Shown: positions 12,620 through 32,755 of the stretch, piece by piece
Position numbering within the stretch: the first letter of the stretch is position 1
Layout of the letters: every line of letters begins with the position of its first letter
Source of the DNA: Bacteroidales bacterium
GTDB lineage: Bacteria; Bacteroidota; Bacteroidia; Bacteroidales; WRLA01
Direction: 5' to 3'
DNA length: 64,000 nt
Assembly (NCBI GenBank): GCA_963676415.1
Contig: OY781097.1
Location: 1,160,240 to 1,224,239 of the forward strand
Program-made: the position numbers and the translations under genes
The notes under the pieces: model-generated
Database searches by the model: none
What the model saw: only the letters and a program-made list of their open reading frames with translations
What the model was told of the DNA's origin: nothing

Positions 12620-13009
12620 ATGAAGAAGATAATATATTTAGTAGCACTGCTTGGGCTGGCATTTGGTTTTCAAGCAGTACAGGCACAGGAAAGTGTTCAG
12701 GAAGAAATTGCTGTGGACAGCACACAGATGCAGAAAATCATCCTTTTTCATAATGAAGGATGCGGCCGTTGCAGTGTTGCCAAAGATTTTTTCGATGAAA
12801 ATCATATCCCCTACATCGGGAAACAAATCAGCGAAGGCGACAACCGCAGGGAGATGCAGCAATGGGTCAATAAAGCACGTGGAGGCAAATCCGGTGGTTT
12901 CAGCTATCCGGTAATCGTACTGAACCAAGACAGTGTTTACTACAGCATCCACAATATCAAAGCTTTCCTCACCGAATTAAAAAAGGAAATTGATGCGGGG
13001 CGGTTTTAG
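12620..13009 (+). CDS. Secreted glutaredoxin-like thioredoxin-fold protein
   Basis: Signal peptide MKKIIYLVALLGLAFGFQAVQA. CGRC redox motif in ILFHNEGCGRCSVAKDFF, and a ...YPVIVLN glutaredoxin-like cis-Pro region. Confidence 0.7.
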   Translation: MKKIIYLVALLGLAFGFQAVQAQESVQEEIAVDSTQMQKIILFHNEGCGRCSVAKDFFDENHIPYIGKQISEGDNRREMQQWVNKARGGKSGGFSYPVIVLNQDSVYYSIHNIKAFLTELKKEIDAGRF

Positions 13010-13106
13010 GTTTATTGTTATCCTTTCCATGCATCTTACTTCCATTTACGAAAAGATGTAAACGGAATTAATCAATATTGCCGCATTATATTTAGTTAGG
13101 GCTAAA

Positions 13107-13898
13107 CTAATACCACACAATACTCAACACTTTATCTTTGTATGGTATAACATGTTCAAAAATTTTTTGGTTTATACCAACATCGTTAATTCCATCAAAC
13201 CAATCAATGCACCATAATTCTTCTGTTCTTTTCCTACCTAAACCTGTATTAAAATATTTTCCTGCCAAGCTATCCTCCGGTACAACATTATTCCCATCAA
13301 TTATTTCCCAATATTTAAAATCTCTGCTACTCCATCTCCATATAATTCTATTATTCTCCATATAGACAATCGTTATCGGGTGGGTTCCTATATCAGAGAA
13401 ACGAATAGCACACGCAGTTAAACTAACCTTGTATTTCTTAGCCAAACTTTCAATCACTTGAAAATTAAATTTTCTGTATAACTCGCAATCAGGCCTAAAG
13501 CGACTCTCAGGCATTAAAAGGCAAGAAGCAAAAAAATCTGCTTCACGTTCAATTACCTGATGTTTGTTTTTATTATACCTTGATGGATGCGGTTTAATCA
13601 AACCAGCTTTTAAAGCAATTCTATGGCTGTCAATGAAGTAATGCCCAAGCTCATGGGCTAATGTAAAACGTCCTCTTTCTTTATTAGAAGTGTTTCCGAG
13701 AGCAGTATTTAGGTGTATGTAAAAGCCTTTATCATAAACTAAAGTTCCATCAAAAGCATTTCCATAATCATCATAAAACACAGGTAGCTCTTCAACCTCA
13801 GCAATTTTATTTAATGGAGTAATAGTTTCATCATGCTCAAGAGCTAGAAATTCTGCTAAATCTTTTATCTGGTTTCTTTTACGATTGTTTATCTTCAT
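13107..13898 (-). CDS. ImmA/IrrE-family (M78) zinc metallopeptidase with a ~110-aa C-terminal domain (CapP/IrrE-like architecture)
   Basis: FTLAHELGHYFIDSH (HEXXH) followed by EREADFFASCLLMP (E..A..FA..LLMP), the ImmA/IrrE signature. Its start overlaps the upstream ORF by 20 nt. Confidence 0.8.
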   Translation of the reverse strand: MKINNRKRNQIKDLAEFLALEHDETITPLNKIAEVEELPVFYDDYGNAFDGTLVYDKGFYIHLNTALGNTSNKERGRFTLAHELGHYFIDSHRIALKAGLIKPHPSRYNKNKHQVIEREADFFASCLLMPESRFRPDCELYRKFNFQVIESLAKKYKVSLTACAIRFSDIGTHPITIVYMENNRIIWRWSSRDFKYWEIIDGNNVVPEDSLAGKYFNTGLGRKRTEELWCIDWFDGINDVGINQKIFEHVIPYKDKVLSIVWY

Positions 13899-14220
13899 CT
13901 TTATGCTTGCTCTTCATTTTATCAAGAATTGATTGAGGTATTTCTTCACTACCTTTTCTTGCAGCCAACTTTATTTCACTAATATCTTGTTGTTCTTCTT
14001 CATCATGAAGCTTTATTACCTTACCTTTCATTTCAAAAGAACCACTAATGATTTCTTCAGGATTTATTCTTACATCTTTTAACTCAAAGTCGTAATCTTC
14101 ATACATTGATTCAAAAAGCTCTAACTCCTTATCTGTTCTTGGGTAAGTGTAGCCTGCAATTGCTAACAGTTCATCAAATCTATCAGCGTTAATGTCCATG
14201 TTTTTCTTTTTATTTGCCAT
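13879..14220 (-). CDS. Hypothetical highly charged/acidic 113-aa protein, middle gene of the triad
   Basis: ORF overlaps both neighbours (11 nt and 20 nt), implying translational coupling. I recognise no HTH or other motif. It has a Lys/Glu/Asp-rich C-terminus. Confidence 0.55.
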   Translation of the reverse strand: MANKKKNMDINADRFDELLAIAGYTYPRTDKELELFESMYEDYDFELKDVRINPEEIISGSFEMKGKVIKLHDEEEQQDISEIKLAARKGSEEIPQSILDKMKSKHKDEDKQS

Positions 14221-14875
14221 TGTACTGATTTAAAAAGTTATCGACTTGTTTATTGGCTTGTTCCTTATACTTCCTTATAGAACCGGGAACTAACCCTAAC
14301 TCATCTTGAAGTTTCTTACTTACAGGTCTAGGAATATTATTCCCCTCATGGGTGTATAACTTATACGTTAAATAAATGATTCTGTGCTTTTCTCCCAAAC
14401 CATTAAGGACTTCTTCTAAAACACTTAGTTGCTCTTTTAGTTCTTTTCTTTTGAAACTATCGACTGTTGAATTTTCAACGAAATCATCAAGAGTATAGAT
14501 AAGAGATAAATCAGTTTCCTTGTCAGGCTCGTGACATGTACCCTTATTTGTGTAATTTACAAGTTGTGTAAATGCAATTCTATTTAACCATCTTATAATC
14601 CCATTATCAATGTTTTTTGATTTAGATTTATCGTGGTCGTATTTAGGGTATTTCCAAACACGGGCAAATGTACAGTTTACAATATCCAACGCCACCGTAG
14701 ATGATAAATTCCAATTTCTACAATTAATCTCCGCAGTCTTTAATACTGCTTCGTCATAACGAAGGCAGAAAACACTAAAAGCAGCTTTTGCTTCTTCCAG
14801 ATATTCATCCCTCCAGCCAATATACTCAAGTAAATCAAGGCTATTAGCAGTTTTTATTTCTTCTGTAACTTCCAA
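14210..14875 (-). CDS. Sigma-70-family-like protein (region 2-like and region 4-like segments)
   Basis: ALDIVNCTFARVWKYP...IRWLNRIAFTQLVNY resembles sigma region 2. LNGLGEKHRIIYLTYKL...LQDELGLVPGSIRKYKEQANKQVDNFL resembles the region 4 HTH. The call is by eye only. Confidence 0.45.
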   Translation of the reverse strand: MEVTEEIKTANSLDLLEYIGWRDEYLEEAKAAFSVFCLRYDEAVLKTAEINCRNWNLSSTVALDIVNCTFARVWKYPKYDHDKSKSKNIDNGIIRWLNRIAFTQLVNYTNKGTCHEPDKETDLSLIYTLDDFVENSTVDSFKRKELKEQLSVLEEVLNGLGEKHRIIYLTYKLYTHEGNNIPRPVSKKLQDELGLVPGSIRKYKEQANKQVDNFLNQYNGK

Positions 14876-14898
14876 AATAGTCTTATTAATTAACTACC

Positions 14899-14919
14899 AA
14901 AAGCGTGAGTCACGCTTTT
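14899..14919. promoter_or_regulatory. Perfect 10-1-10 palindrome in the divergent control region (operator candidate)
   Basis: AAAAGCGTGA-G-TCACGCTTTT lies between the start at 14875 (minus) and the start at 14965 (plus). Because the genes are divergent, it cannot act as a terminator for either. Confidence 0.55.
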
Positions 14920-14964
14920 AGTATATAGGTAAAGAATCAAATTAAATAACAAAAATAAAAAATT

Positions 14965-15138
14965 ATGGCAACAAATCCACCGAAAGACGGAAGCAGAAAA
15001 GGAGCAGTTAGACAGCGTTCTCAGGTAAAAAATCCTAAAACAGGATTATGGACAAAGCGTGATAGTGAAACAGGTCGATTTCTTGATGTCAAGACATCGA
15101 GCGGTAAACCCTTTAAAGGAGTAAGAAAGGAAAAATAA
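14965..15138 (+). CDS. Unannotated 57-aa basic protein, first gene of the CBASS operon
   Basis: My translation: MATNPPKDGSRKGAVRQRSQVKNPKTGLWTKRDSETGRFLDVKTSSGKPFKGVRKEK*. It is below the 60-aa cutoff of the ORF track. Its stop lies 3 nt before the ATG at 15142. Confidence 0.5.
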   Translation: MATNPPKDGSRKGAVRQRSQVKNPKTGLWTKRDSETGRFLDVKTSSGKPFKGVRKEK

Positions 15139-15141
15139 TAT

Positions 15142-15756
15142 ATGAAGAACAATTTTTTTAATTATTTCAGGTCAAGTATCCTAGTCTCATTGATTGTGAT
15201 TTTTGGAATTGCATTGTATGTAGCCAAAACCCATTGGCAGTTATCAATTGCCATATCAGGTAGTGTTAGTATGTTGCTAGTACTTATATCTAATTATTTA
15301 TGGAAAATTAAGCCCTTTAAATGGTTGTTTTGGATTGATGATTTTTCAGGTAGGTATGAAGGTATTCTGAAATACAGCTATGTTGATGAGAATGGCAACC
15401 TGCAAACAGGCGAACGGAAGCATATAAAGATTATTAACCAAAATGGAAGTCGAATTTCCATTGCATCCTTCACATTAAAGAAAGATGGAGGTAGGTCTTC
15501 ACCATCGTATAGTCGAGGTTTGTTCGTAGAGCAAACTGAAGACGAACATCATTTTCGAATAATATATCATTATCTCAATGAAGGTAATCATCAACTTGGC
15601 TTTCATCCCCACTTTGGTACAGATGTATTAAAGCTAATAAAGCAAGGAAATGAAAAGGTTTTATCTGGTGGATACTACACAGATAGAAAACCACAAACAC
15701 GAGGGGAATATCATAATCTTAAATGGGTCAGCAATGACCTTAATCACGAATTTTAA
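15142..15756 (+). CDS. CBASS effector candidate: two N-terminal TM helices plus a beta-rich C-terminal domain (Cap15 / S-2TMbeta-like)
   Basis: TM1 ILVSLIVIFGIALYVA, TM2 LSIAISGSVSMLLVLISNYLW, then FSGRYEGILKYSYVDENG...RISIASFTL...HHFRIIYHYL alternating beta-strand pattern. It sits immediately upstream of a CD-NTase. Confidence 0.55.
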   Translation: MKNNFFNYFRSSILVSLIVIFGIALYVAKTHWQLSIAISGSVSMLLVLISNYLWKIKPFKWLFWIDDFSGRYEGILKYSYVDENGNLQTGERKHIKIINQNGSRISIASFTLKKDGGRSSPSYSRGLFVEQTEDEHHFRIIYHYLNEGNHQLGFHPHFGTDVLKLIKQGNEKVLSGGYYTDRKPQTRGEYHNLKWVSNDLNHEF

Positions 15757-15768
15757 TACAGAAATAAA

Positions 15769-16767
15769 ATGGCAGTCTTACATAAAGAATTTATAAAGTT
15801 TAACAAAGAAATAAAGCTTACTTCTTCAAGAAAAGAGAAGCTAAAAACAAGTCGTAAAGACATTAAGAAAAAAATTAGAAAATGGTTTAAAGACAATAAA
15901 CCGGATGAATTACAACCTAAATTTCATGGCCAGGGTTCTTTTGAAATGAACACAGGTGTAAATCCTATCCCTGAAAAAGATGGTGACACCACCTTATTGA
16001 AATTTGATTTGGATTTTGGAATCTACTTCATTGAAAAAGAAGACGAGGATAACAAGCAATCTATTGATACATGGCATAATTGGGTTTACAAAGCGGTTGA
16101 AGACCATACTAACAAGAAACCTGTTAGGAAAACAACATGTATTCGTGTCATATTTAGTGATGGGCATCATATTGATTTGCCAATTTACTACAAACTTGAA
16201 GATGTAATTGAACTTGCACATTGGTCAAAAAATTGGATTGAAAGTGACCCAAAAGAGTTTTATGAGTGGTTCAACAACTTAAAGAATGCTCAACTTGAAA
16301 GGATAGTTAGGTATCTTAAAGCATGGAAAAACTATCGGGAATTAAATAATACAAATTTGAAGCTCCCGAGTGGCTTTGAACTTACCATACTTGCTGCAAA
16401 CAATTATGTTGAAGATGATAATGACGATAAAGCCTTTAGAGAAATTGTTCGTAAAATAAACACGGAACTAAATAAAACTAATGGTTTCAAATGTTTGCGT
16501 CCAACAACACCAAAAGATGAGGATGTCTTTGCAGACTACTCTACAACAAGAAAAAACAACTTCCTTTCGACCTTAAAAAGCTTGCTAAACGATTTAGACA
16601 GAGCCAAAGATGAGAAAAACTTCAAAAAAGCTTCTGAGATTCTGCGTGACAATCAGTTTGGCGATAGATTCCCATTAGGTGCAGATAAGGACGAAGAAGA
16701 AAAAAGCAATAATCTTGGGAAAAGCCTTGGGGCAGCAGCAATTACACCAAAGCCTTATGGATATTAG
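15769..16767 (+). CDS. cGAS/DncV-like nucleotidyltransferase (CD-NTase, CBASS cyclase)
   Basis: N-terminal FIKFNKEIKLTSSRKEKLKTSRKDIKKKI helix. Active-site GQGSFEMNTGV ... KFDLDFGIYF (GS...DxD) and third acidic residue in GHHIDLPIYY. WIESDPKEFYEWF motif. Confidence 0.8.
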   Translation: MAVLHKEFIKFNKEIKLTSSRKEKLKTSRKDIKKKIRKWFKDNKPDELQPKFHGQGSFEMNTGVNPIPEKDGDTTLLKFDLDFGIYFIEKEDEDNKQSIDTWHNWVYKAVEDHTNKKPVRKTTCIRVIFSDGHHIDLPIYYKLEDVIELAHWSKNWIESDPKEFYEWFNNLKNAQLERIVRYLKAWKNYRELNNTNLKLPSGFELTILAANNYVEDDNDDKAFREIVRKINTELNKTNGFKCLRPTTPKDEDVFADYSTTRKNNFLSTLKSLLNDLDRAKDEKNFKKASEILRDNQFGDRFPLGADKDEEEKSNNLGKSLGAAAITPKPYGY

Positions 16768-17398
16768 AAAGCAAATTGAAGAAGTATTGAGACATTATTC
16801 GGGATTATCCTTTAACGAGAATAACAATTCGATTGATGGAGAACTGTTTATTTCAGAGGATGATTCCTATGATGTTTCAATACATCTTGAACCATATCCC
16901 AAACATTTTCCAAGAGTATTTGAAACAGGTGAACGTATCCCTCCAAAGGTTTCAAGACATATTTATTCGAATACTAAATCGTGTTGCCTTTCTACACTGG
17001 CAAAGGCTCAAATTCTGCTTAAAACTGAAATTAGTACTTTAAATCTATTCATAAAGGAAATAGTAGTGCCTTATTTTCAGAATAACTCATATTTTGAAAT
17101 TAATGGCAAATACAAGACTGATGAGTATGCACATGATAAGAGCGGAGTAATTGAAGGTTATAGGGATATACTTCAAACAAATAACGATTATTTAATAGCA
17201 AGTCTAATAAAAGAAAGAATAAAAGGAAAGAAGCTGCGCCTTCATGACTTGTGCTACTGCGGTAGTGCCCTATCAATGAAAAAGTGTTGTGATTACCAAC
17301 ATTACATATGTTATAAGAATTTCAGAAAAGTAGATATTAATGTTCTTATTAATGATATACCAATTTTTATTGATCATCTTAAAAAAACTCGTTCTTAA
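16757..17398 (+). CDS. E2-only ubiquitin-conjugating-like protein (Cap2-like, type II-short CBASS) with a C-terminal SEC-C-like zinc motif
   Basis: E2-like HIYSNTKSCCLS (compare HPN....G.ICL) preceded by YPKHFPRVFETGERIPP. C-terminal CYCGSALSMKKCC resembles the SEC-C motif. The ATG at 16757 overlaps the CD-NTase stop by 11 nt. The track start at 16679 would overlap by 89 nt. Confidence 0.6.
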   Translation: MDIRKQIEEVLRHYSGLSFNENNNSIDGELFISEDDSYDVSIHLEPYPKHFPRVFETGERIPPKVSRHIYSNTKSCCLSTLAKAQILLKTEISTLNLFIKEIVVPYFQNNSYFEINGKYKTDEYAHDKSGVIEGYRDILQTNNDYLIASLIKERIKGKKLRLHDLCYCGSALSMKKCCDYQHYICYKNFRKVDINVLINDIPIFIDHLKKTRS

Positions 17399-17501
17399 AT
17401 AATTTGAAAAATGCTATTACCTTATAAAAAACTCTCAAATATTTCTAATCATGTGAACAGGACTCAAAAGTATAACGATTACAATAAAAACACAACCAAA
17501 C

Positions 17502-17534
17502 AAAAAAGCCACCTGAAAATCAGATGGCTTTTTT
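17502..17534. terminator. Bidirectional rho-independent terminator between the convergent CBASS operon and kbl
   Basis: aaaaaagccacctg-aaaat-cagatggctttttt has an A-run 5' and a T-run 3', so either strand reads as a hairpin followed by U-tract. Confidence 0.75.
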
Positions 17535-17552
17535 AATATCATTTGGAAGGGA

Positions 17553-18743
17553 TTATTTAATCACGTTGAGTTCTTTCCCCACCTTAATAAAAGCATTGAT
17601 TGCTTTATCGAGATGAGCTACCTCATGTCCGGCAGAAAGCTGCACACGGATACGGGCCTGTCCTTTTGGCACCACAGGATAGTAGAAACCAATAACATAA
17701 ATGCCTTCATCGAGCAGTTTGGCGGCAAAATCCTGGCTCAGTTTGGCATCGTAGAGCATAATGGCACATATTGCTGATGCCGTGGGTTTGATATCGAAAC
17801 CGGCATCCTTCATTTTGCCCATGAAATAGTCGGTATTGCTGTGCAGTTTATCTTGCAGCTCGGTAGTTTCGTTCATCATATCAAACATACGGATACCGGC
17901 ATTTACCACTACAGGAGGAATGGAATTAGAGAAAAGATACGGGCGTGAGCGCTGGCGCAGCATTTCAATAATTTCTTTGCGGCCGGTAGTAAAACCGCCA
18001 ATAGCACCGCCAAAAGCTTTACCCAGCGTTCCGGTGATGATATCTACTTCGCCACGGATATCAAAAAGCTCGGTAACGCCACGGCCAGTTTTACCCACAA
18101 CTCCTGCTGAGTGGCACTCATCCACCATAATCATGGCATCGTATTTTTTGGCCAGCTCATTGATTTTGTCCATTGGGGCCACATTGCCGTCCATGGAGAA
18201 AACACCATCGGTAACGATCAGGCGGAAACGCTGTGCCTGTGCTTCTTTCAGCTTGGCTTCCAGATCTTCCATATTGGCATTTTCGTAGCGGTAACGCTGC
18301 GCTTTACAGAGGCGCACACCATCAATAATGGAAGCATGGTTGAGCGAATCGGAGATGATGGCATCTTCGGCGGTAAGGATGGGTTCAAAAACACCGCCAT
18401 TAGCATCAAAAGCCGCAGCATAAAGGATGGTGTCTTCAGTACCGAAGAATTCCGCAATTTTACGCTCCAGGGTTTTGTGCAGGTCTTGCGTACCGCAAAT
18501 AAAACGAACAGATGACATACCGTAGCCATGTGTATCAAGAGCATCTTTAGCCGCTTTGATCAGCTCGGGATGGTTGGAAAGGCCGAGATAGTTATTGGCA
18601 CAAAAGTTCAATACATCCTGACCGGTAGTAAGGGAAATATCCGCTTTTTGCGGAGAATTAATAATGCGTTCTTCTTTGTAGAGTCCTGCTTCACGAATGT
18701 CAGCAATCTCTTTCTGAAGGTGTTCTTTGATTTTACCGTACAT
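17553..18743 (-). CDS. kbl: 2-amino-3-ketobutyrate CoA ligase (glycine C-acetyltransferase)
   Basis: 396 aa. NYLGLSNHPELI, DGVFSMDG, and the PLP-lysine context ITGTLGKAFGG. Class-II aminotransferase of Kbl type. Confidence 0.9.
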   Translation of the reverse strand: MYGKIKEHLQKEIADIREAGLYKEERIINSPQKADISLTTGQDVLNFCANNYLGLSNHPELIKAAKDALDTHGYGMSSVRFICGTQDLHKTLERKIAEFFGTEDTILYAAAFDANGGVFEPILTAEDAIISDSLNHASIIDGVRLCKAQRYRYENANMEDLEAKLKEAQAQRFRLIVTDGVFSMDGNVAPMDKINELAKKYDAMIMVDECHSAGVVGKTGRGVTELFDIRGEVDIITGTLGKAFGGAIGGFTTGRKEIIEMLRQRSRPYLFSNSIPPVVVNAGIRMFDMMNETTELQDKLHSNTDYFMGKMKDAGFDIKPTASAICAIMLYDAKLSQDFAAKLLDEGIYVIGFYYPVVPKGQARIRVQLSAGHEVAHLDKAINAFIKVGKELNVIK

Positions 18744-18850: not shown

Positions 18851-20880
18851 GACAAAGAATATGACCCCTTTGGGGTCAGCTCTTTAACTTATGTTTCTTG
18901 TTACAAATATTCAATCCCTCCGGGATTGTTTTGCTTTCGCAACCCGTTTTTCCCTGATGCGGTAATCCCATGCAATGAAGACATTAAAAGACCCCGAAGG
19001 GGTCATATAGCTATATTACGCATAGTCAACTTACTAAAACGACCCAAAAAGGGGTCGCATATCTAATATCAGCAGAAGCTTCGAGATTATTCTTCCGAAA
19101 GCTTTCGGAATTGAAACCTGTTACTTCGGCAAGCTCAGCACAGGCATTCCGTTCAGACGGGACTCCTTATTTTCAATACAAAAAATGCCTCGACTTTAGC
19201 TGAATTAACATTTTTGATGCACCTGCAAGCTCATGAACCTATGATTCTTGTTATAAACATTCAATCCCTCTGGGATTGTTTTGCTTTCGCAACCCGTTTA
19301 TTCCTGATGCGGTAATCTCATGCAATGCAGACATCAAAAGACCCTGAAGGGGTCATATAACTCTATATTAGGCATGGTCAACTTACCAAAAACGACCCCA
19401 AAAGGGGTCGCATATTAGTTTCTGAGCAAAATACAACTCAATCATCAAATAAGTATTCCCTCCTAAAATCAATATTATATTCCTCCAGAAAACGATGATA
19501 TTCTTCCTTGAAGCTTTTGTTCCGATGGTGTTCCTTTTGATTTTCTATATATTTATCAACCTTTGAAAGGTCTGAATGACTATACGAAAAAGCGCCAAAA
19601 CCCTCCTGCCATTCAAACTTAAACTTAGTAAAACCTTTTTCTTTGATAAATTTATTGGACGACTTCTTTACTTCACGAACGAGATCCGAAAGACAACAGC
19701 TTGGCTTCATACCTATTAGGATATGAATATGATCAGAAACACCATTAACCCTAATCAATTTTTGACCTTTGTTGGTGATTATACCTGTAATGTACTTATA
19801 CAATTCATTTTCCCAATGCGATTGTATTAATTTCTTTCTGCCTTTAACGGCAAAAACTATCTGAATATAAATTTGTGAGTAGGTGCTCATTTTTTTAGCT
19901 GAATTAACATTTCTGATGCACCTGCAAGGTAATAAATTAGAGCTAATTTCAAACATTTTTTTAGAATATGACCCCTTTGGGGTCAGCTCTTTAACTTATG
20001 TTTCTTGTTACAAATATTCAATCCCTCCGGGATTGTTTTGCTTTCGCAACCCGTTTTTCCCTGATGCGATAACCCCATGCAATGAAGACATTAAAAGACC
20101 CCGAAGGGGTCATATAACTATATTACGCATAGTCAACTTACTAGATACGACCCCAAAAGGGGTCGCATATCTAATGTCAGCCAAAACTTCGGGATTATTC
20201 TTCCGAAAGCTTTCGGAATTGAAGCCTGTTACTTTGGCAAGCTCAGCACAGGTATTCCGTTCAGACGGGACTCCTTATTTTCAATACAAAAAATGCCTCG
20301 ACTTTAGCTGAATTAACATTTTTGATGCACCTGCAAGCTCATGAACCTATATTTGTTGTTATAAATATTCAATCCCTCCGGGATTGTATTGCTTTCACAA
20401 ACCATTTTTCCTGATGCGGCAATCTCATGCAACGCAGATATCAAAAGACCCCGAAGGGGTCATATAACTATATTACGCATAGCCAACTTACCAAAAACGA
20501 CCCCAAAAGGGGTCGCATATCTAATATCAGCAGAAGCTTCGAGATTATTCTTCCGAAAGCTTTCGGAATTGAAACCTGTTACTTCGGCAAGCTCAGCACA
20601 GGCATTCCGTTCAGACGGGACTCCTTATTTTCAATACAAAAAATGCCTGGACTTTAGCTGAATTAACATTTTTGATGCACCTGCAAGCTCATGAACTTAT
20701 GTTTGTTGTTATAAATATTCAATCCCTCCGGGATTGTATTGCTTTCACAAACCATTTTTCCTGACGCGGCAATCTCATGCAACGCAGATATCAAAAGACC
20801 CCGAAGGGGTCATATAACTATATTAAGCATGGTCAACTTACCAAAAACGACCCCAAAAGGGGTCGCATATCTAATGTCAA
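18851..20880. repeat. Array of ~5 composite repeat units (~350-390 bp each, some partial) rich in GACCCC-N-GGGGTC and TTCCGAAAGCTTTCGGAA hairpins; REP/BIME-like
   Basis: Units start near 18851, 19241 (partial), 19967, 20346 and 20696. Each carries tgacccctttggggtca, gaccccgaaggggtc, cgacccc(a)aaaggggtcg and ttccgaaagctttcggaa (e.g. 18862-18878, 18990-19004, 19040-19057, 19093-19110). Confidence 0.85.
19438..19890 (-). CDS. IS200/IS605-like Y1 (HUH) transposase, REP-associated tyrosine transposase (RAYT)-like
   Basis: MSTYSQIYIQIVFAVKGR..., HUH motif SDHIHILIG, catalytic Tyr helix DKYIENQKEHH. It is embedded in the repeat array. ATG at 19890 is preferred because the track start at 19956 lies in repeat sequence. 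Confidence 0.8.
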   Translation of the reverse strand: MSTYSQIYIQIVFAVKGRKKLIQSHWENELYKYITGIITNKGQKLIRVNGVSDHIHILIGMKPSCCLSDLVREVKKSSNKFIKEKGFTKFKFEWQEGFGAFSYSHSDLSKVDKYIENQKEHHRNKSFKEEYHRFLEEYNIDFRREYLFDD

Positions 20881-20889
20881 TCACAAGCA

Positions 20890-23800
20890 CTACTTAATTT
20901 CCACCCTGTTCCCTTTCGAATGCGCTTCAAACTCAGGAGCATAGAGGCACTGGGCACTGGCTAAACCATTGCTAAAATTGCCTTTTTGAGCTGCAATCAG
21001 GGTATATTCAAACTGATGCATGCCTTTGCTCAAATAATAGACAAAGAAATTTGCTGTGGCATCTTTCATATCCAGATAATAGCCATTGCCACTGTTCCAG
21101 AAATAGCCTGAACGGCTGCTTTCCTGCTCCAGTCCGGCAGCATGATAATCGCGGATGTGCACATATTCCAGTTTACGGTCTGTTTCCACGCTCAAACGCA
21201 CAACAACACGGTCTCCGGGATTGATTGCCATTCCTTCCTCCAAAGGGGTCAGGTTGCCACTTGCTGATTCCAGGAAATAGTCTCTGTCAATACTCATCGG
21301 GCTTTCATGCGCTTCGGCTTTATCCAGTCCTACCATAAAACTCAGGTAGGCAGCGCCCCAGGAAGGGACTTTACCGCTGTTTGTGGCTTTAATCGCTTCA
21401 ATTTGCGGATGATCCACTTTTTGATGGCTCCATTGCTTCTTAAAATATCCTGTTCCGGCTTCTTTCTGAACCTTCAGTTCATGATAGGTTCCGTTCTCCT
21501 TCAGACTGACTTTTAGGTTATCCTCATCTTCGAGAAGTTTTGTGCCCTTCATCAAAAGCGCATAACAGGCATCAGCAGTATTGCTGTTGGACCTCCAGCT
21601 TCCGGTCTGCTTTTGTTTCAACAGCCAAACCTTCATTTGTTCCACTTCTTCGGGGAAAAGGCCATTTTTGGTGAAAAGCTCGATCACTTTCACCTGTTGG
21701 CCTACACCATCGGAATACCAGAACCAGCCTTGCGCATGGCGCCAGTACATGCCCATTTCATCGCTGTGAAGTGCGCGCTCGCGTATGCTGCGTACCAATT
21801 CGTTGGCGGTTTTGCTTTCGCCGATCATAAAGGCCCAGTTGGCAATTTTTGCCTGCATGTAAATACTGTACTCAAAACATTTTTCAAGCGTTCTGGCTTT
21901 AAAAAACTCATAAACCTCATCAAAACCATCTATATTTTTCCTTGGTGCATAGCCCAGTTTTTCGGCAGTTTGCTTCATCTCAAGCCATGCAATCACATTT
22001 GGCGAAGGCTGGTATTTTTCCGGATCAAAACTTTTGCGCTCCTTCATTTTCTGATAGTATCCGATCATTTCCCGGTCCAGATATGTCATGGCCGAACGGA
22101 TGATGTTGTTTGAGCGGACCGGCAGTTCCACATCCATTTCGCGCAGGCGCAAGAGTTTATCCATCACATTTATGGTATTCCATGCGGAGGATTCCATACC
22201 ATCAAACCAGCTGAAACCTCCATCACCATTCTGGCGATCGGCCAGTTTATTGAACCATGAATCCATTTTATACGAAACTGTATTCAAGTCAAATAAAGTA
22301 GCCAGACGCAGTTTACGTTCATGATCGTTTTCTGCTTCAAGAACCCAGGGTGTTTCCTTAAGAAGTACTGATTTAAGTTCTTCATTCTTCTGGAGCTGGC
22401 TTAAAAGAGCATCGGGCTGTAGGTTTTTCCATGTCTCAATTACCTGCTGTATGCGTGGTGATGAATGTGCGATATGCGAAGAAACCGCAGTGGCATAATA
22501 TGCATTGGCCAAACTAAAAACACTTTCATACGAAGGCTGGGCCAAAGCGGGCAATGCCTGAACAGCATACCAGGCAGGGTTTCCGGTAAACTCGAGGGTA
22601 AGCCTGAAATCTTCAACTTCCTGTTTCTTCAAAGAATTATACCATTTTTCCAGCTCAATTTCCTTTTCCTGGCCGGGATTTACATATATCGGCATACTTT
22701 CGGTCATGGCCACACGATTGGTCAAAACCGGGACAATTTTCTGTTCCCCGTCCTGATGCTTTTCGGTTTCGGCGAAAACGGCAATCTGCAAAGGCATTTC
22801 TGCCTCCGGAACTTTTAATTTCCATGCAGCAGCAGCCGAAGCATGGGCTTCCATATTCAGCTCCAAGGTTTTATTGCTTTCAAGAACCTCATTGGTGATG
22901 TCCTTCCCATTGACAGGGTTTACAATCTGTATCCATGCCTTTGCGACACAAGCCTCATCAGTTTTATTGCGGATTAATGCCGGGAGTTCCATTTCATCTC
23001 CTTCGCGGAGGAAACGTGGCAGGTTAGGAAAGACCATCAGTTCTTTTGTGGTGATGGCTTCTTTGCTTGTCATCGCTGTTTCGAGATCCTTTGTATAAGC
23101 CATCATCCTGAATTTCCATGCCGTTAATGCTTCGGGCGCGGTAAATTCGATGAGCACATCTCCTTTCTCATTGGTTCGGAGATCGGGATAGAAAAAGACT
23201 GTTTCGTTGAGGTTTGTGCGTGGTGCAGGCGGGGTTTTTTCTTTTGGCTGTTTCGGCTCAGGTGGCAAAGCTCCTCCTTTGTCATTCTCTTCATCAGCAG
23301 CCACATAAATTTCATCACCGGCCATTGAAGGTTGCACTCCTTCAAGCGCCATCGGCATCTCTTTCTCCAAAGATTTTGAACGGTAATAAACCCTCCTTCC
23401 TCCAAAATACAGATCCACAAAATTCAGTTTATCATAGCGCTGTTGCAAATAGGATTGATATCTATAATCTGATCCGTAAAGAACCACAGAAGAAGCCGTA
23501 CCAAAATCACTGAAAAAATCCCGGTTCAACCTATAGAATGGATATTGCACAAAATTCCAGCTATCGGTTGCAAACACATCCAGCGAACGGTCGTACATGC
23601 CCGCCAAAACCGAAGAAGCAAGCTTTTGGCCATCGGGACCGGAAATATGGAAACTCCAGCTTTCTTTGGCTCCGGGCTTCATCTTATCCCTGAACGTTAT
23701 CGTTTTGATATCCAGCTTTTTATTGCTCCACGGAATTTTTATCAGTTTATCATAAGTATAAATGCGGTTTTCACAGATAAACCAGGCGTGCAGGCTCACA

Positions 23801-26800
23801 TTCCCGCGCCACGATTCCTCAACTGTAAATTCCAGTTTTTTAACATCTGCATGAAGCTTCAGCTCATCTTTCTTGATGATTTTATCGTCTTGCCTGATTT
23901 CATATGCCATCAGCACATCCTTTTTCGAGCTTCCGGCAAAGAAAGTAAACACATCGCCCGGCTGGAGTTCCTTATCAGGATACACATAAAACCACGACCA
24001 ATCGGTATAGGGCATTTTGCGGCTTTTGGGGTTGATCAGCAGCACATCTGCCGAATCGCTTATGGTTTTTCCATCCACTTCTGATGAAACAATTATGCGG
24101 TACATGCCCGCTTTTTGTTTATCCAGTCCGGCATAGGTTTGCAGATCATCAGCCTTCCCGGTTTTTAATTCAGCTTCAAAAAGCTGCTTCTCTTTTATGA
24201 AATCCGGCTTTTCACCGCTCCTGTAAGCAATATCACTTTGATAACCCCCTTTTGCATCCCTGTAATTTGTTCTCCAGGAAGAAAACAATGACGGCCTTGC
24301 CAGCCCGTTTTCAGAAGCCAGGCTGTACAGCTCAATTTTAGCAGAAACCACCACAGATTCTTCATTCAAATTGATCGCACGAACATTTACTTTGCTCAGT
24401 TCATTGGTCAGCATGCTTTGAGGAGCATTTAGTTTCAGGAAGAATGGCTGATCTCCAATACTGATATTGATCTCATCGGAGCGGGTTTCTCCGGCGGGCG
24501 TTACAACATCTACAAAAACCCTGAACTGGTAATTGCGCCATGATGCTGTTTTAAATTCCGATTTTCGGGCGATAAAAGGAATTTCAAAATTCCCATCAGC
24601 GTCGGTCTGGCTTTCGCCGGATGCTATTTCTTCTGGCATATTTTGTTTCACATAAAACCAATAAAACGGTGACCATTCCACACGCTCCACCCTATACCGG
24701 ACCGTCGAGTTTTCTATCGGAAGCTGATTGAAGGTTTTTGCTTCTCCTTTCACCACAACTTCTTCTCCCAGTTTTAAAGTTGTTTTGGGTTGTTGCAGCG
24801 AAACTTCAAATGTTGGCCGTTTATATTCCTCAACCCGGATACTATGATAACCATATTCATTGCTCAGGCTCATGCTTCCGTTTAACAATCCTTCCGGGAT
24901 ATGGAAACTTCCGTCAACTGCACCATACTCATTGGTCACCAGCTCCTTTTCTCCTATCACTTTGTGATTTACATCATAAAAAATAATCTTCGTTTTGTGA
25001 TCGGTCAAAAGTTTAAAAGCATCATCTTCCTTCTGTGTGATGATTGCCTTAAAAAAGACCTGCTGGCCCGGTCGATAGATAGCACGATCAGTAAAAAACC
25101 AGCTTCTTGGTTTATCCACAGACTCATAGGAACGGGTTTTATACAGGTCCCTCTGTGATAGGAATGCATCATCACCTTTGTTCAGGAACACCTTACAGGA
25201 CGAACGGGAGCTCAGTTCCGCTTTCGCTTTTCCGGATGCATCCGAAAGACGCTTTACTGATTTTCTGGAACTGCCATAAACAGGTAAAAGCTCAATATCC
25301 ACATTTGGCAAAACCGCTCCACTTTTTCTGTTTCGGGTGATAATGGTATAATCATTTTCGTATTTCTCAGCAACAAAAGCCAGTTCCGTTACCCAGAAAT
25401 CAGTCCAGCTTGTGATTGCGTTCTTTGTAGGTGTCGGATTTTCCTCAGCGGAGGCAATCAAAACATAAAGTCCCTTTTGCAATTCGGGCAGGAAGGTTTT
25501 TAAAGTGACTTCCGCATAATCCTCAATCCCCTCTTTGCGGATATGCCACTTTTTTAAAGGTTCATCTTGAGATATTCTTTCAATATCCTTTCGGTCAAAA
25601 GAATAATTTCTGGTTTTGAGCAGGTTTTCAGGATCAACTTTATAAACAGTCAACCATAAAGTATCCAAATTGCGGCAATAAACCAATGCAGGCATTTCTT
25701 CCCCGGGCAGGCTGGCATACTCTGTTTCAAGGCCGAGGCTTTTTTCAAGCAGTTTTCCTTTCAAAACAGTGGCGTTATGAGCAGCGCGGCTCCCGGTATA
25801 ATCGCTTATCAATTCATTGCAAATTTTCATTGCGCGGATATTGTTTTGGTCAATGCCATCAAGGGATGTAACAGAAATTTCTGAAAGGGCACGGGCCAAT
25901 TGAAATTTCACCTCCGCAACATATTTATCTGCCCGCCACTCCTCAACCATAGTTTCTATAGCACTTAAGTAAAGGCTTCCTTGAACGGAACTGAATTTTT
26001 CCTGCACAAAATCTAAACGATGCAGGTCGGCATCCAGCAAAGCCGGAATGTTTTTTGATTGTTTATGGAACTCCAAAATATCTTGATAAATAGCTAATTG
26101 GGCCTGAACCGTATTTTGTTGGTTAAAATCAATTGCCAGAAATTCTTTAAGCGGTGCCATCAATTTTTCCGTATCCTTTACACCTGTCGGGCCGGGCACA
26201 CCAAAAGATGCGGAGAAATCCAGCAGGTCTATAACCTGAAACGCAACAATATCGTAAAGTGTCGGACGAAAAACATCCGAACTGTCTTCTTCCGTAAGCA
26301 AGTTGCGGTATTCGTCTGCCTGGCATTTCTGAAGCTCAGTAGCATTATCAAGTGCCTGAAGGCTTAACTTTTTCACCTGATCTGCAAATTGAGCGGCATT
26401 CCAGTACCGTAAATCCTCCGGGATTTCACCGCTCAGCCTCTGCTTCATCAGCTTATATGAATTGCTTTCTGCATAGGATTTGTACAAGCCGGCCAACATA
26501 ATATCATAGAGGCTCTTTGCTATTGGTCTTGCCTCTTTTACAGCATCTTTAACAAACTCAATCCCTTTGATAACCGGCTCTTCTTCATACATATCCCAAA
26601 GCTGGCATTTATAGGAGGCTGCCTTTATTTCCTGAGCGACCAGTTGCTGTTGTCGTGCCTGCGCATAGATACGGTCCACGATATCCATAGCAGATTGCGG
26701 CCTGCGCTTTTGCATCAGCTCGTCCACTTCTTTCCATTCTTTTGCAAAGGGTTTATCGCCTTCGGGGACATCCGTTGATGTAAGTCCAAAAAGCAGGATA

Positions 26801-26889
26801 CAGGAAACAAAAATCAGGGGCAGGGAAAATTTCTTCTTACTCATAATATGCTGTTTTTTTGATGATCGAAAATTACTCATTTTTTCCAT
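20890..26889 (-). CDS. Alpha-2-macroglobulin-family large protein (no thioester motif seen)
   Basis: ~2000 aa. Repeated MG-domain-like beta modules (e.g. YRPGQQVFFKAI..., GSFHIPEGLLNGSMSL) and a C-terminal alpha/alpha region NGDGGFSWFDG...TADACYALLMKG. The likely true start is MSKKKFSLPLIFVSC (26844), a lipoprotein-like signal. Confidence 0.75.
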   Translation of the reverse strand: MEKMSNFRSSKKQHIMSKKKFSLPLIFVSCILLFGLTSTDVPEGDKPFAKEWKEVDELMQKRRPQSAMDIVDRIYAQARQQQLVAQEIKAASYKCQLWDMYEEEPVIKGIEFVKDAVKEARPIAKSLYDIMLAGLYKSYAESNSYKLMKQRLSGEIPEDLRYWNAAQFADQVKKLSLQALDNATELQKCQADEYRNLLTEEDSSDVFRPTLYDIVAFQVIDLLDFSASFGVPGPTGVKDTEKLMAPLKEFLAIDFNQQNTVQAQLAIYQDILEFHKQSKNIPALLDADLHRLDFVQEKFSSVQGSLYLSAIETMVEEWRADKYVAEVKFQLARALSEISVTSLDGIDQNNIRAMKICNELISDYTGSRAAHNATVLKGKLLEKSLGLETEYASLPGEEMPALVYCRNLDTLWLTVYKVDPENLLKTRNYSFDRKDIERISQDEPLKKWHIRKEGIEDYAEVTLKTFLPELQKGLYVLIASAEENPTPTKNAITSWTDFWVTELAFVAEKYENDYTIITRNRKSGAVLPNVDIELLPVYGSSRKSVKRLSDASGKAKAELSSRSSCKVFLNKGDDAFLSQRDLYKTRSYESVDKPRSWFFTDRAIYRPGQQVFFKAIITQKEDDAFKLLTDHKTKIIFYDVNHKVIGEKELVTNEYGAVDGSFHIPEGLLNGSMSLSNEYGYHSIRVEEYKRPTFEVSLQQPKTTLKLGEEVVVKGEAKTFNQLPIENSTVRYRVERVEWSPFYWFYVKQNMPEEIASGESQTDADGNFEIPFIARKSEFKTASWRNYQFRVFVDVVTPAGETRSDEINISIGDQPFFLKLNAPQSMLTNELSKVNVRAINLNEESVVVSAKIELYSLASENGLARPSLFSSWRTNYRDAKGGYQSDIAYRSGEKPDFIKEKQLFEAELKTGKADDLQTYAGLDKQKAGMYRIIVSSEVDGKTISDSADVLLINPKSRKMPYTDWSWFYVYPDKELQPGDVFTFFAGSSKKDVLMAYEIRQDDKIIKKDELKLHADVKKLEFTVEESWRGNVSLHAWFICENRIYTYDKLIKIPWSNKKLDIKTITFRDKMKPGAKESWSFHISGPDGQKLASSVLAGMYDRSLDVFATDSWNFVQYPFYRLNRDFFSDFGTASSVVLYGSDYRYQSYLQQRYDKLNFVDLYFGGRRVYYRSKSLEKEMPMALEGVQPSMAGDEIYVAADEENDKGGALPPEPKQPKEKTPPAPRTNLNETVFFYPDLRTNEKGDVLIEFTAPEALTAWKFRMMAYTKDLETAMTSKEAITTKELMVFPNLPRFLREGDEMELPALIRNKTDEACVAKAWIQIVNPVNGKDITNEVLESNKTLELNMEAHASAAAAWKLKVPEAEMPLQIAVFAETEKHQDGEQKIVPVLTNRVAMTESMPIYVNPGQEKEIELEKWYNSLKKQEVEDFRLTLEFTGNPAWYAVQALPALAQPSYESVFSLANAYYATAVSSHIAHSSPRIQQVIETWKNLQPDALLSQLQKNEELKSVLLKETPWVLEAENDHERKLRLATLFDLNTVSYKMDSWFNKLADRQNGDGGFSWFDGMESSAWNTINVMDKLLRLREMDVELPVRSNNIIRSAMTYLDREMIGYYQKMKERKSFDPEKYQPSPNVIAWLEMKQTAEKLGYAPRKNIDGFDEVYEFFKARTLEKCFEYSIYMQAKIANWAFMIGESKTANELVRSIRERALHSDEMGMYWRHAQGWFWYSDGVGQQVKVIELFTKNGLFPEEVEQMKVWLLKQKQTGSWRSNSNTADACYALLMKGTKLLEDEDNLKVSLKENGTYHELKVQKEAGTGYFKKQWSHQKVDHPQIEAIKATNSGKVPSWGAAYLSFMVGLDKAEAHESPMSIDRDYFLESASGNLTPLEEGMAINPGDRVVVRLSVETDRKLEYVHIRDYHAAGLEQESSRSGYFWNSGNGYYLDMKDATANFFVYYLSKGMHQFEYTLIAAQKGNFSNGLASAQCLYAPEFEAHSKGNRVEIK

Positions 26890-27108
26890 TCGTCAGGGTG
26901 AAACACAAAAATCGTTCCGTTTTTGGGAATACCAGTGGCATAAATCATTGAGGCTTCGTTTTATGAGTATTGTATAATTCATCAACATAACCGAAATTTC
27001 CCTAACCTGCTCTATTCATAAAATGCAAACAAAATATTATAATCAGCCAAAAATTAGGTTTTTACTAATTTTATATCCTAAAATTGAATTTGTTTGCATT
27101 TTACCAGT

Positions 27109-27223
27109 GCATTAACTTCAGACCATCTGCTTCGTTGCTAAAGCTTTGAAATAGGCTACTATATCTTCAGCTTTAGACGCCTCACATCTGACCTGAATTT
27201 AAAGCATGAATAAAGCAGGCTAA
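27109..27223 (+). repeat. ~115-bp conserved intergenic element, copy 1 (copy 2 at 44888-45000)
   Basis: gcattaa...catctgc.tcgttgctaaagctttgaaa.aggc...tatcttcag.tttagacgcctcacatctgacctgaattta.agcatgaata.agcaggctaa occurs in both copies, same orientation, with an internal hairpin ctaaagc/gctttag. Confidence 0.7.
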
Positions 27224-28102
27224 GAAACATTTCTGGCTGTAATCTAAATATTGGTTGATTCACAGCGCAATTTCCATGGATTAGATAATCAAAGAATATC
27301 GAATTACGACCCGTTTCATATAGAAACCACCTATTTACATAAATTTATAAGGAAGTTTAGATTTCTCCCGGCAACACTCCGCTTTGCTTTGTGTTTTGGT
27401 CGAAATGACCGTTTTTTATTGTCAGGAAGCAGGGGGAGGTTTATGCCTGAAAAGCATTGCCGACTGAGAAATCTATAAGTTTTTTTGAATAAAACTTATA
27501 TTCTTAACAATCATCCGTTATTTAGAATACAGCCACATTTCTTAATACAAAGTAGCTGTGAGATCCGAAACAAATTGCTATTTTTACTGCCATATTTGAT
27601 ATTATGTTCAGACATACAATTTTATATAAGTTTTTACATATACATTGATCCCCTGCATTTGAACCAGATTGGATTCTGTAATTATTAGTCAAATATATTA
27701 TATTTTGAAAAACTATTTTCTATTATATGGCAATAGTTTAAAACTTTCTGGTTCTACTCGTATTTTTTGGGTAATAAGAATTGAGATAGAATTGGAGGTT
27801 ATACTTTTCCAAAGTTTCATTGATTAGTTCTCTAAATATTAATTAGGTATTCAAAACTGTATTCTAACCTTTGAATACTTTAAATGTTTCCATGGAAGGC
27901 AGAGTAGAACCAACTTTTTCTAAAAAGCTAATAATTAACTAACCACAATAACTGGAAAGATGTTTCGTTTATTTAAAGCATATATTATAGCGAAAATAGA
28001 GCATAATGTGCAAAATGACAATAAAAATATTCAAAGTGATAAATATAAAATTCTGATTGAGTGGTAATATTGCACCTATAATTAATCAAATAATTGAATA
28101 TT

Positions 28103-29113
28103 ATGAAACAGGCAACAAAAATTGACGTGCATCATCACATTTTTCCTAAAAACTATGTTGATGCACTAAAATCACAAGGCGTAAAAGACACTTTGGGTGT
28201 GGATTTTCCTGAATGGACACCTGAAACCTCGTTGAAAATTATGGACAAGAACGGGATTAAAATGGCAATACTTTCCATAACTGCCCCGGGTGTTTATTTC
28301 CCCGATATTGAGTTCACAACAGGATTTTCTGAAAATCTTGCTCGAATGACAAACGAAACCATAGCCGAAACAAAAAAGAAATATCCAAATCGTTTTGGTG
28401 GTTTTGCAACCATTCCCTTATTAAATCCCGATGTTGCAATTGAAGAATTACATTACGCTTTAGACACCTTGCATCTGGACGGTGTTTGCTTAATGACTAA
28501 CTATAATGGTAAATATCTCGGCAACGAATTATTTGAACCGTTTTTCAACGAATTGAACAAAAAGAAAGCCGTTGTTTATATCCATCCAACCAATCCCGGA
28601 GAACAATTTGACCCTGAATTAGATTTTCCGAGTGCACTTATTGAAGCTCCATTTGACACAACCCGTACTGTTGCCGACCTTATGTATTCGGGGACGTTGG
28701 ACAAATATCATGATATTAAATTTATTCTCTCGCACGGGGGTGGCACACTTCCATTCTTGGCTTGGAGAGTGGCTATGATAGAATATGCACAAAAAGGCAA
28801 AAAACCACCTGTGTTAAGAAGTATGTACGACTTTTTGCTTAAAGGAAAACCGGAAAAAGGCTTAAAGCTTTTGAAAAAAATGTATTTCGATACTGCCTTG
28901 GTATCAGGCGAATATGCATTGAAACCGTTACAATTATTTGCTGATCCTGAACACATTGTTTATGGTTCTGATTTTTGTGTGGCTAAAATGGCTCCGATAA
29001 TTACCAAAAACCTCACAAAAAACGGCAATTTCACAGGAAAAAATCTCGACAATATGGAATACAAAAATTGCTTACAGTTGTTTCCGGCATTGGAAAAATA
29101 TTACTCAAAATGA
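28103..29113 (+). CDS. Amidohydrolase-2 family protein (ACMSD-like metal-dependent hydrolase/decarboxylase)
   Basis: IDVHHHIFPKNY N-terminal metal-binding HxH, ...VVYIHP..., ...ILSHGGG..., ...IVYGSDF. Confidence 0.7.
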   Translation: MKQATKIDVHHHIFPKNYVDALKSQGVKDTLGVDFPEWTPETSLKIMDKNGIKMAILSITAPGVYFPDIEFTTGFSENLARMTNETIAETKKKYPNRFGGFATIPLLNPDVAIEELHYALDTLHLDGVCLMTNYNGKYLGNELFEPFFNELNKKKAVVYIHPTNPGEQFDPELDFPSALIEAPFDTTRTVADLMYSGTLDKYHDIKFILSHGGGTLPFLAWRVAMIEYAQKGKKPPVLRSMYDFLLKGKPEKGLKLLKKMYFDTALVSGEYALKPLQLFADPEHIVYGSDFCVAKMAPIITKNLTKNGNFTGKNLDNMEYKNCLQLFPALEKYYSK

Positions 29114-29116
29114 TAT

Positions 29117-29819: not shown

Positions 29820-29833
29820 CATTAATGGATTTT

Positions 29834-30379: not shown

Positions 30380-30455
30380 TCTAAAAAATCATTTTCTCTT
30401 CATTAGTGAGAGTGTCACTTAAGTGACGCCCTCACTTGGCGACAATCATTTTATC

Positions 30456-32742: not shown

Positions 32743-32755
32743 GTAAGCAAAAAAA

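Follow-up and report, generated by a model that had tools for sequence, protein, structure and literature searches.

Immune systems that work by self-killing must stay silent yet inducible, and switches of the CapP/CapH and WYL types are known solutions to this demand. Some extracytoplasmic function (ECF) sigma factors are freed from their anti-sigma partners by regulated proteolysis, sigmaE-RseA being an example of such a pair, and ECF sigma genes often share a transcript with their antagonist. Duncan-Lowey and colleagues are said to have described, in 2021, the mechanism of the Cap15 (S_2TMBeta) membrane effectors of anti-phage signaling systems based on cyclic oligonucleotides (CBASS). Here we analyze a 64,000-nt stretch from a Bacteroidales bacterium (contig OY781097.1, positions 1,160,240 to 1,224,239), hereafter the window, in whose numbering all coordinates are given. 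It carries what is very probably a mobile seven-gene anti-phage module of two divergent operons, one comprising a type II-short (E2-only) CBASS together with a 57-aa protein referred to as S38, and the other a CapP-type switch (Table 1).

The closest described relatives of these two halves come from Escherichia coli, Serratia, and Bacteroides. The 107-aa CapH of E. coli is cut by CapP between F82 and R83 upon ssDNA (single-stranded DNA) binding, and the R83A substitution blocks the cut (Lau et al. 2022; 2026 CapP preprint). In addition, the pairing of capH and capP with a predicted sigma factor of the sigma70 family was reported for 24 CBASS systems, with no further study (Lau et al. 2022). 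In the SmCdnG-SmE2 pair of Serratia marcescens, the E2 cleaves after a C-terminal glycine of the cyclase and links to it covalently without an E1 (PMC12948482). Of the E2-CBASS cyclases, 74% belong to clade G, and these are longer (~400 aa) and bear a special E2-binding C-terminal motif (PMC12948482). The B. fragilis cyclase BfCdnB is CdnB04, a clade B04 enzyme whose product is mainly 3'3'-cGAMP.

As judged by comparison with related DNA, the seven genes form a 4.3-kb, low-GC mobile module of exchangeable halves with the junction just upstream of S38. Zobellia uliginosa DNA is 91% identical exactly over 13104-17386, from the capP stop to the E2 stop, while a metagenome-assembled Bacteroidales locus (L001; L numbers denote the loci compared) shares only 14946-17385 with the window and has a different regulatory triad, from which the modular construction follows. 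Such identity to a module in another class of Bacteroidota suggests recent transfer of an intact unit. All seven open reading frames (ORFs) are intact, their catalytic residues are invariant, and their tight or overlapping junctions are conserved. The GC content is 33-36% across 13-18 kb and 43-50% in the flanks. On the plus strand, the ORFs of 57, 204, and 332 aa are followed by an ORF at 16679-17398, within which an in-frame ATG at 16757 opens a 213-aa E2-like protein. With this start, gaps of 3 nt and 12 nt separate the first three genes, and the last two genes overlap by 11 nt. A scan for cyclase homologues, limited to one genome per species, yielded 26 sister loci (46-95% identity, all Bacteroidota), and because 21 of these 26 show the same 11-nt overlap of cyclase and E2 genes with an equivalent ATG, 16757 is likely the true E2 start. 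A hairpin (17501-17535) separates the E2 stop from a convergent aminotransferase gene and closes the operon.

Table 1. Coordinates of the features of the predicted defense module in the window
Feature	Position	Strand	Basis or description
CapP	13107..13898	-	ImmA/IrrE-type zinc metallopeptidase with C-terminal extension; predicted ssDNA-activated protease
CapH-like protein, 113 aa, acidic	13879..14220	-	PADLOC capH 1.1e-11
Predicted ECF-type sigma-70-family protein, 221 aa, divergent sequence, TTG start	14210..14875	-	Family-profile match to ECF sigma structures
Palindrome, candidate operator or bidirectional promoter element	14899..14919		In the 89-nt divergent intergenic region
S38, 57-aa basic protein	14965..15138	+	PDC-S38 / PHROG 12550 member; promoter-proximal first gene
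Cap15-type effector, 204 aa	15142..15756	+	Pfam Cap15_CD_rec, PADLOC 2TM effector, hydropathy
CD-NTase, clade B-like, 332 aa	15769..16767	+	Pfam, PADLOC, NCBIfam, PDB 7LJO
E2-like protein, 213 aa	16757..17398	+	PADLOC E2 models; invariant H68 and C77
Terminator-like hairpin	17501..17535	.	GC-rich, A/T runs on both sides, terminator-like in both directions

The protein identities are based on PADLOC, Pfam, NCBIfam, and PHROG models, together with sequence and profile searches of the PDB. The 332-aa protein is a nucleotidyltransferase of the cGAS/DncV-like kind (CD-NTase) by its matches to Pfam DncV-like_NTFase (1.1e-20) and SMODS (3.7e-13), to the PADLOC cyclase model (E 2.2e-119), and to the NCBIfam "CBASS cGAMP synthase" NF041078 (229.7 bits, cut-off 150). 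Its best solved relative is BfCdnB (PDB 7LJO, 5.6e-47, residues 1-314), the following PDB matches lying at 2e-20 and the clade A enzyme DncV at 1e-7, and on this best solved match we place it as clade-B-like and nearest to BfCdnB. The catalytic motifs of the two enzymes align over 314 residues, and the active site of the window cyclase (G56-S57, D80, D82, and D136) is invariant across 27 sequences. An acidic residue is also kept at or beside the "lid 3" Asp238 position of BfCdnB, its counterpart being D250 or E251 depending on where a 1-residue gap is placed.

The 204-aa protein encoded upstream of the cyclase is assigned to the Cap15 type, with two N-terminal transmembrane (TM) helices and a C-terminal beta-barrel predicted to serve as cyclic-dinucleotide receptor. 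It scores above the gathering cut-off of Pfam Cap15_CD_rec (PF18153; E 5e-9, 37 bits against 31.2) and matches the PADLOC 2TM effector model end to end (E 1.3e-102). Its hydropathy profile (19-residue window) has two peaks, at about residues 9-30 and 32-54, and nothing hydrophobic after residue 60. While the domain layout is thus that of Cap15, the Pfam score is a mere 37 bits, and a PDB sequence search with the effector returned nothing significant.

The third core protein is E2-like. It matches eight PADLOC E2 models (best 3e-68), and its predicted catalytic residues, His68 and Cys77, do not vary among 17-27 homologues. The same holds for C166, C177, and H182, which belong to a C-terminal Cys/His motif that resembles SEC-C and gives weak NCBIfam SEC-C-type matches. 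The active-site stretch RHIYSNTKSCCLSTL finds residues 62-96 of UBE2W in a weak phmmer match (E 0.37); this part of UBE2W contains its HPN...Cys active-site loop, HPHVYSNGHICLSIL. A profile-profile alignment (hhalign) pairs the family with the H...C of the shorter PF26395-type CBASS E2s at a probability of 46% and E 2e-4. A PDB sequence search with the E2-like protein gave nothing significant. E2s of the same SEC-C-tailed type also follow Pycsar-like cyclases (L027-L032 and L040; also L057, L061, L063, and L114), and these cyclases end in KP[YFW] plus a few residues, much like the window cyclase; E2 control may therefore reach beyond CD-NTases.

With a CD-NTase, a Cap15-type effector, and an E2 identified, and with no ThiF/E1 or JAB/Cap3 gene among the annotated ORFs between 9.4 and 26.9 kb of the window, the locus classifies by gene content as a type II-short CBASS. 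This agrees with a preliminary description made from the DNA letters and their ORF translations, which had proposed an E2-only CBASS with a 2TM beta-rich effector upstream of the cyclase. The ORF coordinates and junctions that it gave are borne out by the ORF list, and the motifs that it picked out (GQGS, FDLDFG, HIDLPIY, and WIESDP in the cyclase; RHIYSNTKSCCLS in the E2-like protein) are present. Model searches recover all three core proteins, including the SMODS/CD-NTase match for 15769-16767, the placement of the 204-aa protein in the S_2TMBeta/Cap15 class and not in an unrelated membrane family, and the E2 character of the last protein with its catalytic cysteine. The effector-first gene order, which had appeared atypical, is in fact the rule for this lineage, being shared by 26 of the 26 sister loci. 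The CBASS itself is one more example of a clade-B-like cyclase with E2 and Cap15 and, as such, routine.

Like SmCdnG-SmE2, the window has a CD-NTase, an effector, and an E2-like protein that stands alone, with neither E1 nor JAB; the His...Cys active site of this protein is conserved; the cyclase and E2 genes overlap; and the cyclase tail is conserved and ends in glycine plus an extra residue. This tail reads PKPY(G/A) and one variable residue (Y, H, S, C, A, E, or D) across the sister loci, with PKPYG followed by Y in the window, and fits an E1-independent E2 cleavage and ligation chemistry by analogy with the Serratia pair. The differences are that the window cyclase is clade-B-like and 332 aa long, that its E2 has 213 aa, a SEC-C-like tail, and no PF26395 match whereas SmE2 measures ~18 kDa, and that the tail differs from the G397/G398 context of SmCdnG.

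The divergent operon on the minus strand consists of three overlapping genes (sigma and CapH-like genes by 11 nt, CapH-like gene and capP by 20 nt). CapP (263 aa), whose gene is divergent from the immune operon, matches Pfam Peptidase_M78 (PF06114, 3.6e-16) with the HEXXH motif at H82-E83-L84-G85-H86, the PADLOC capP model over its full length (1e-63, 8-263), and the PDB entry 7t5t "CapP" (3.8e-12) in an alignment that passes the peptidase domain and extends to residue 213, as would suit the GAF-like C-terminal sensor domain of the CapP family. Its partner, a protein of pI (isoelectric point) 4.8, is matched by PADLOC capH at 1.1e-11. In an alignment of 28 members of this CapH-like family, Arg88 is the only near-invariant residue besides Met1; it is part of an (A/F)-R motif that falls within a predicted helix, 25 residues before the end of the protein, and R83 of E. 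coli CapH lies 24 residues from its own end. The 221-aa protein gives, as a single sequence, NCBIfam matches below cut-off (TIGR02937 at 1.2e-4, TIGR02985 at 9e-5). A profile of 33 members of its family, however, matches many ECF sigma structures, the best being RpoE (2q1z, 1.7e-7) over both sigma2 and sigma4, with an alignment that spans profile positions 16-199. We therefore predict an ECF (group 4) sigma-70-family protein with sigma2 and sigma4 domains. PDB sequence searches with the single CapH-like and sigma-like sequences gave nothing significant.

This unit resembles the CapH/CapP switch of E. coli MS115-1 in being divergent from and upstream of a CBASS, in its homologous CapP, in the overlap of the small partner gene with capP, and in the conserved arginine placed as at the F82-R83 site; it differs in that the partner has no detectable helix-turn-helix (HTH) and in its third gene, which encodes the ECF-type sigma. 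With sigmaE-RseA it shares a sigma gene co-transcribed with a small partner, here joined by a protease, and the proposed release of sigma by proteolysis of that partner. It departs from that pair in that its partner has neither a TM segment nor a recognizable anti-sigma domain, and in that the protease is a cytoplasmic M78 peptidase predicted to sense ssDNA. The preliminary description had called the adjacent protease/sigma-like unit atypical; it is instead a CapP/CapH-type regulator with a sigma-70-family gene, an arrangement that is already in Lau et al. (2022). The sigma/CapH-like/CapP triad is in this sense a variant mentioned in the literature but uncharacterized.

Between the two operons lies a perfect palindrome of 10+1+10 nt, AAAAGCGTGA-G-TCACGCTTTT, followed by AGTATA (14920-14925). 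It occurs nowhere else in the window (0 expected by chance) and is conserved in orthologous cassettes that precede CBASS (L002, L003), Pycsar-like (L027-L031), and other cargo (L075) alike; it tracks the cassette and not the cargo. Other cassette subgroups carry inverted-repeat arms 9-20 nt apart, or direct repeats instead. The palindrome could represent back-to-back promoter elements or a repressor operator. A scan for the sigma-70 consensus promoter found fewer sites than in shuffled sequences and none in the divergent intergenic region, a consensus that is uninformative for Bacteroidota and ECF promoters. A common -35/-10 pair was sought in 40 intergenic regions and abandoned; its spacing was inconsistent across subgroups, for which reason we claim no promoter elements. 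No Rfam RNA family occurs in 12900-17700, and the S38 region evolves as coding sequence; the idea that this region is a riboswitch or a leader RNA was therefore rejected.

S38 itself is a basic protein (pI 11.1) that matches PADLOC PDC-S38 over positions 1-57 of 57 (4.6e-32) and, also across its full length, PHROG 12550 (1.9e-26), and belongs to no Pfam or NCBIfam family. The family comprises 1826 clusters at 90% identity, the top 120 of them all at least 79% identical, and 629 clusters at 50% identity, and is conserved at 55-96% identity across the sampled phyla. Copies 55-77% identical occur on plasmids of Klebsiella, Yersinia, Serratia, Vibrio, Deinococcus, Clostridium, and Clavibacter and in Staphylococcus, Streptococcus, and Microcystis phages. 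The consensus reads MAtNppkD..RkGaV..RsQ..nPkt..w.KRd..TGrFmDvK....pFKGvrkEk. Differences fall mostly at third codon positions (1382, vs 689 at first and 619 at second positions), and DNA identity is lower than protein identity; the substitution pattern is that of a coding sequence. An AlphaFold2 model of moderate quality (predicted local distance difference test, pLDDT, 69) contains one beta-hairpin, and a Foldseek search of it against the PDB gave no match at E<=0.001. The searched literature makes no mention of PDC-S38, PHROG 12550, or the S38 motif, which appear as catalogue entries only, and we found no description of the positional link between S38 and regulators of the CapP, CapH, and WYL types.

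Two further observations concern the family. An 896-aa ricin-B-like repeat protein (P0250, TIQQKSTGRFLDAYTSSG...) contains five matches to residues 21-54 of S38 (E 1.9e-10). It may be that the core of S38 is similar to a single beta-trefoil sub-repeat, or the match might be driven by composition; as Pfam gives S38 no lectin match, we treat it as a lead only. In Staphylococcus phage phi575 (L131:4001-4165; KY389063.1 5643-5807), an S38 homologue of 77% identity lies in the early region, antisense to the annotated hypothetical gene Gp10 and on the strand that encodes the cI repressor. In view of how conserved S38 is, the phi575 annotation probably misses a real gene.

How might the module work as a whole? 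The identities of the core proteins and the conservation of their catalytic residues come from homology, and the steps beyond it would run as follows. ssDNA arising from DNA damage or phage replication would activate CapP. The CapH-like protein would hold the sigma factor until activated CapP cuts it before Arg88, and the freed sigma would then drive the divergent promoter that contains the palindrome, raising expression of S38 and the CBASS. Upon a phage cue, the CD-NTase would make a cyclic dinucleotide, most likely 3'3'-cGAMP-like as for BfCdnB, which would bind the beta-barrel of the Cap15-type effector, whose two TM helices would in turn disrupt the inner membrane, killing the infected cell. 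By analogy with the Serratia pair, Cys77 of the E2 would attack the PKPYG-Y tail of the cyclase and remove the last residue, and the resulting covalent E2-cyclase adduct would tune cyclase activity with no need for an E1. For S38, our best guess is a nucleic-acid- or RNA-polymerase-binding accessory. In its broadest form, which we offer tentatively and consider possible but rather doubtful, the proposal is that S38 is an unrecognized cross-phylum accessory of DNA-damage-gated immune operons, a co-induced first gene behind CapP/CapH, CapP/sigma, and WYL (CapW/BrxR-type) switches that engages a conserved host target (ssDNA, RNA polymerase, or the ribosome) and in this way shapes induction or licenses the suicide systems downstream, and that the triad represents a new switch for immune genes in which proteolysis releases a sigma factor.

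A number of observations weigh against this scheme. On the regulatory side, neither Pfam nor NCBIfam gives a match for the CapH-like protein, HTH families being absent at E<=1, which is why it is named CapH-like and not CapH. No solved CapH or HTH protein in the PDB matches it by sequence or by family profile, the latter returning only EF-hand-like noise that we discarded. Its AlphaFold2 model (mean pLDDT 49.6) consists of helices only, shows no HTH-like globule, and is too uncertain to use. With neither an HTH nor a confident fold, the anti-sigma role of this protein is one that we infer. Perfect palindromes, furthermore, are seen more typically in the operators of dimeric repressors than in promoters that depend on a sigma factor. 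On the CBASS side, the E2-like protein matches no Pfam family, PF26395 (E2-CBASS) included, and its probable tie to the characterized E2s derives from the PADLOC models and the profile alignment above. Because the window cyclase is clade-B-like and of 332 aa while the studied ones are of clade G and ~400 aa, the E2 mechanism may also differ.

The standing of S38 can be weighed from its genomic contexts, counted over 93 non-redundant loci. The preliminary description had included the small first ORF in a four-gene CBASS, and, as a 3-nt gap separates it from the effector gene that follows in the same orientation, it could be an integral fourth component that serves, for instance, as antidote or chaperone of the membrane effector. 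Such a role is highly improbable, as 19 of the 25 sister loci usable for the count (L009 is cut upstream), all with the same three core genes, lack S38, and as S38 precedes unrelated cargos elsewhere. Behind it stand CBASS operons with Cap15, Sa_NUDIX, STING, SAVED, and patatin effectors as well as Pycsar-like operons, type I restriction genes, PD-(D/E)XK nucleases, DUF1883, and KTSC proteins. A serious rival, which we judge somewhat less than probable, is that S38 is an autonomous small gene of stand-alone defense, anti-defense, or mobile-element nature, as the single-gene PADLOC label PDC-S38 implies, and that it lands in promoter-proximal positions with no functional tie to the regulators or to CBASS. 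It does occur without a CapP, WYL, or sigma neighbor in Firmicutes-type prophage early regions (L119-L128), in Staphylococcus and Streptococcus phages, and on a C. perfringens phage-plasmid; neither the sigma nor the M78 family lies upstream in 18 of the 55 loci with enough upstream DNA; and one locus (L013) has the sigma triad and no S38. Random landing would nonetheless sit uneasily with an upstream gene that is divergent in 62 of 74 loci, a next gene on the same strand within 200 nt in 62 of 81, and sigma and/or M78 families directly upstream in 37 of the 55 (the full triad in 27), other loci having HTH plus M78 or WYL regulators there. Among the 26 sister CBASS loci, moreover, 6 of the 9 that have CapP carry S38, and none of the 17 that lack CapP does (hypergeometric p ~4e-4, with the kinship of loci ignored). 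Its identity stays at 74-95% through swaps of regulators or cargos, with 74-91% where the regulators have diverged below 31% (L001, L007, L021) and 82-89% where the cargo is wholly different (L027, L033). As S38 tracks CapP and persists through swaps of regulator and cargo, it belongs with the regulated promoter and not with CBASS, and its contexts mark it as a widespread promoter-proximal companion of regulators predicted to be damage-responsive.

The regulators admit another reading too. The 221-aa protein could be a DNA-binding repressor whose sigma4-type HTH sits on the palindrome, dimerized via the CapH-like protein until a CapP cut breaks the complex; the output would be the same, in that damage induces expression, by a different mechanism. 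The perfect 10+10 palindrome, conserved with the cassette, is like the dimer operator of canonical CapH systems, and the single-sequence matches to sigma models fall below cut-off. Canonical CapH, moreover, is an HTH fused to a cleavable dimerization domain (Lau et al. 2022), an architecture that could be split here over two proteins. We nevertheless consider a repressor unlikely: the family profile aligns over ECF sigma2 and sigma4, well beyond an HTH alone, and the separated arms and direct repeats of other subgroups fit two divergent promoter elements better than a fixed operator. The common co-transcription of ECF sigma genes with their antagonist points the same way. It is also conceivable that what is left here is a remnant, decaying or without a defensive role, for instance the addiction module of a mobile island, in keeping with the low GC content of the locus and with the decay of S38 copies in sister loci (an apparent frameshift in L004, divergence in L001). 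The seven intact ORFs, invariant catalytic residues, conserved junctions, and 91% DNA identity to the module of another Bacteroidota class make this very hard to credit, and an intact, switch-controlled defense module remains the reading that we favor.

The S38 loci display several arrangements of their own. In L027-L032 and L040 (e.g., L027:6001-8203), the sigma/CapH-like/CapP and S38 cassette lies inside a conjugative element of the CTnDOT type, and the cargo is a Pycsar-like operon of a PycTM effector, a PycC-like cyclase, and then an E2. Minimal contexts (the set L129, L134, L137, and L132) include a 5.4-kb ColE1-type plasmid of Klebsiella pneumoniae (L129, NZ_CP110173.1), where a WYL-domain regulator is divergent from S38 and the latter is followed by DUF1883 and a 220-aa protein; Serratia and Alteromonas loci, where WYL is divergent from S38 and a PD-(D/E)XK nuclease follows; and Deinococcus, where ImmA/IrrE plus HTH are divergent from S38 and a KTSC protein follows. 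A second small ORF of 51-52 aa, with the motif SLCYKDSCIHAKGSNA and a C-terminal hydrophobic helix, stands ~70 nt after S38 in L033:6245-6400, L045, L055, L057-L060, L064, L065, and L075; it is absent from the window. In L004:4210-4367 S38 is apparently frameshifted, being found as two tblastn pieces in different frames, and in L001:4197-4370 it is divergent (75% protein vs 80% DNA identity), with a GTG start and the PFKG motif lost. The downstream CBASS is intact in both, which suggests that S38 is dispensable for the cargo.

Around the module lie genes for ATP synthase subunits, a ferritin, an aminotransferase, an IS200-like Y1 transposase, and an alpha-2-macroglobulin. The transposase gene (19438-19956, minus strand) is surrounded at 18856-20886 by ~350-nt direct repeats (4-5 copies, 71-100% identical) in an arrangement that resembles the REP/RAYT type (repetitive extragenic palindromes and their associated transposase), and the many short ORFs listed there are repeat artifacts. 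The bacterial alpha-2-macroglobulin-like protein (20890-26889, minus strand) has 1999 aa and contains A2M, MG2, and bMG10 domains. Other low-GC stretches of the window (30-38% vs 42-48% elsewhere), at 27000-37000, 44000-45000, 52000-56000, and 58000-63000, may be acquired islands.

Beyond a routine CBASS, the interest of this locus lies in its sigma-containing regulator variant, in the pairing of a clade-B-like cyclase with a SEC-C-tailed E2, and above all in the ubiquitous S38 leader gene. The window provides a compact, intact example of an unexplored sigma-containing CapP variant, together with a conserved palindrome and a candidate cleavage-site arginine. S38, for its part, is a tiny protein that holds a fixed promoter-proximal position before many unrelated defense cargos, on chromosomes, integrative and conjugative elements, 5-kb plasmids, and phages. 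Should S38 indeed have a part in induction or licensing, this would hold for many defense islands.

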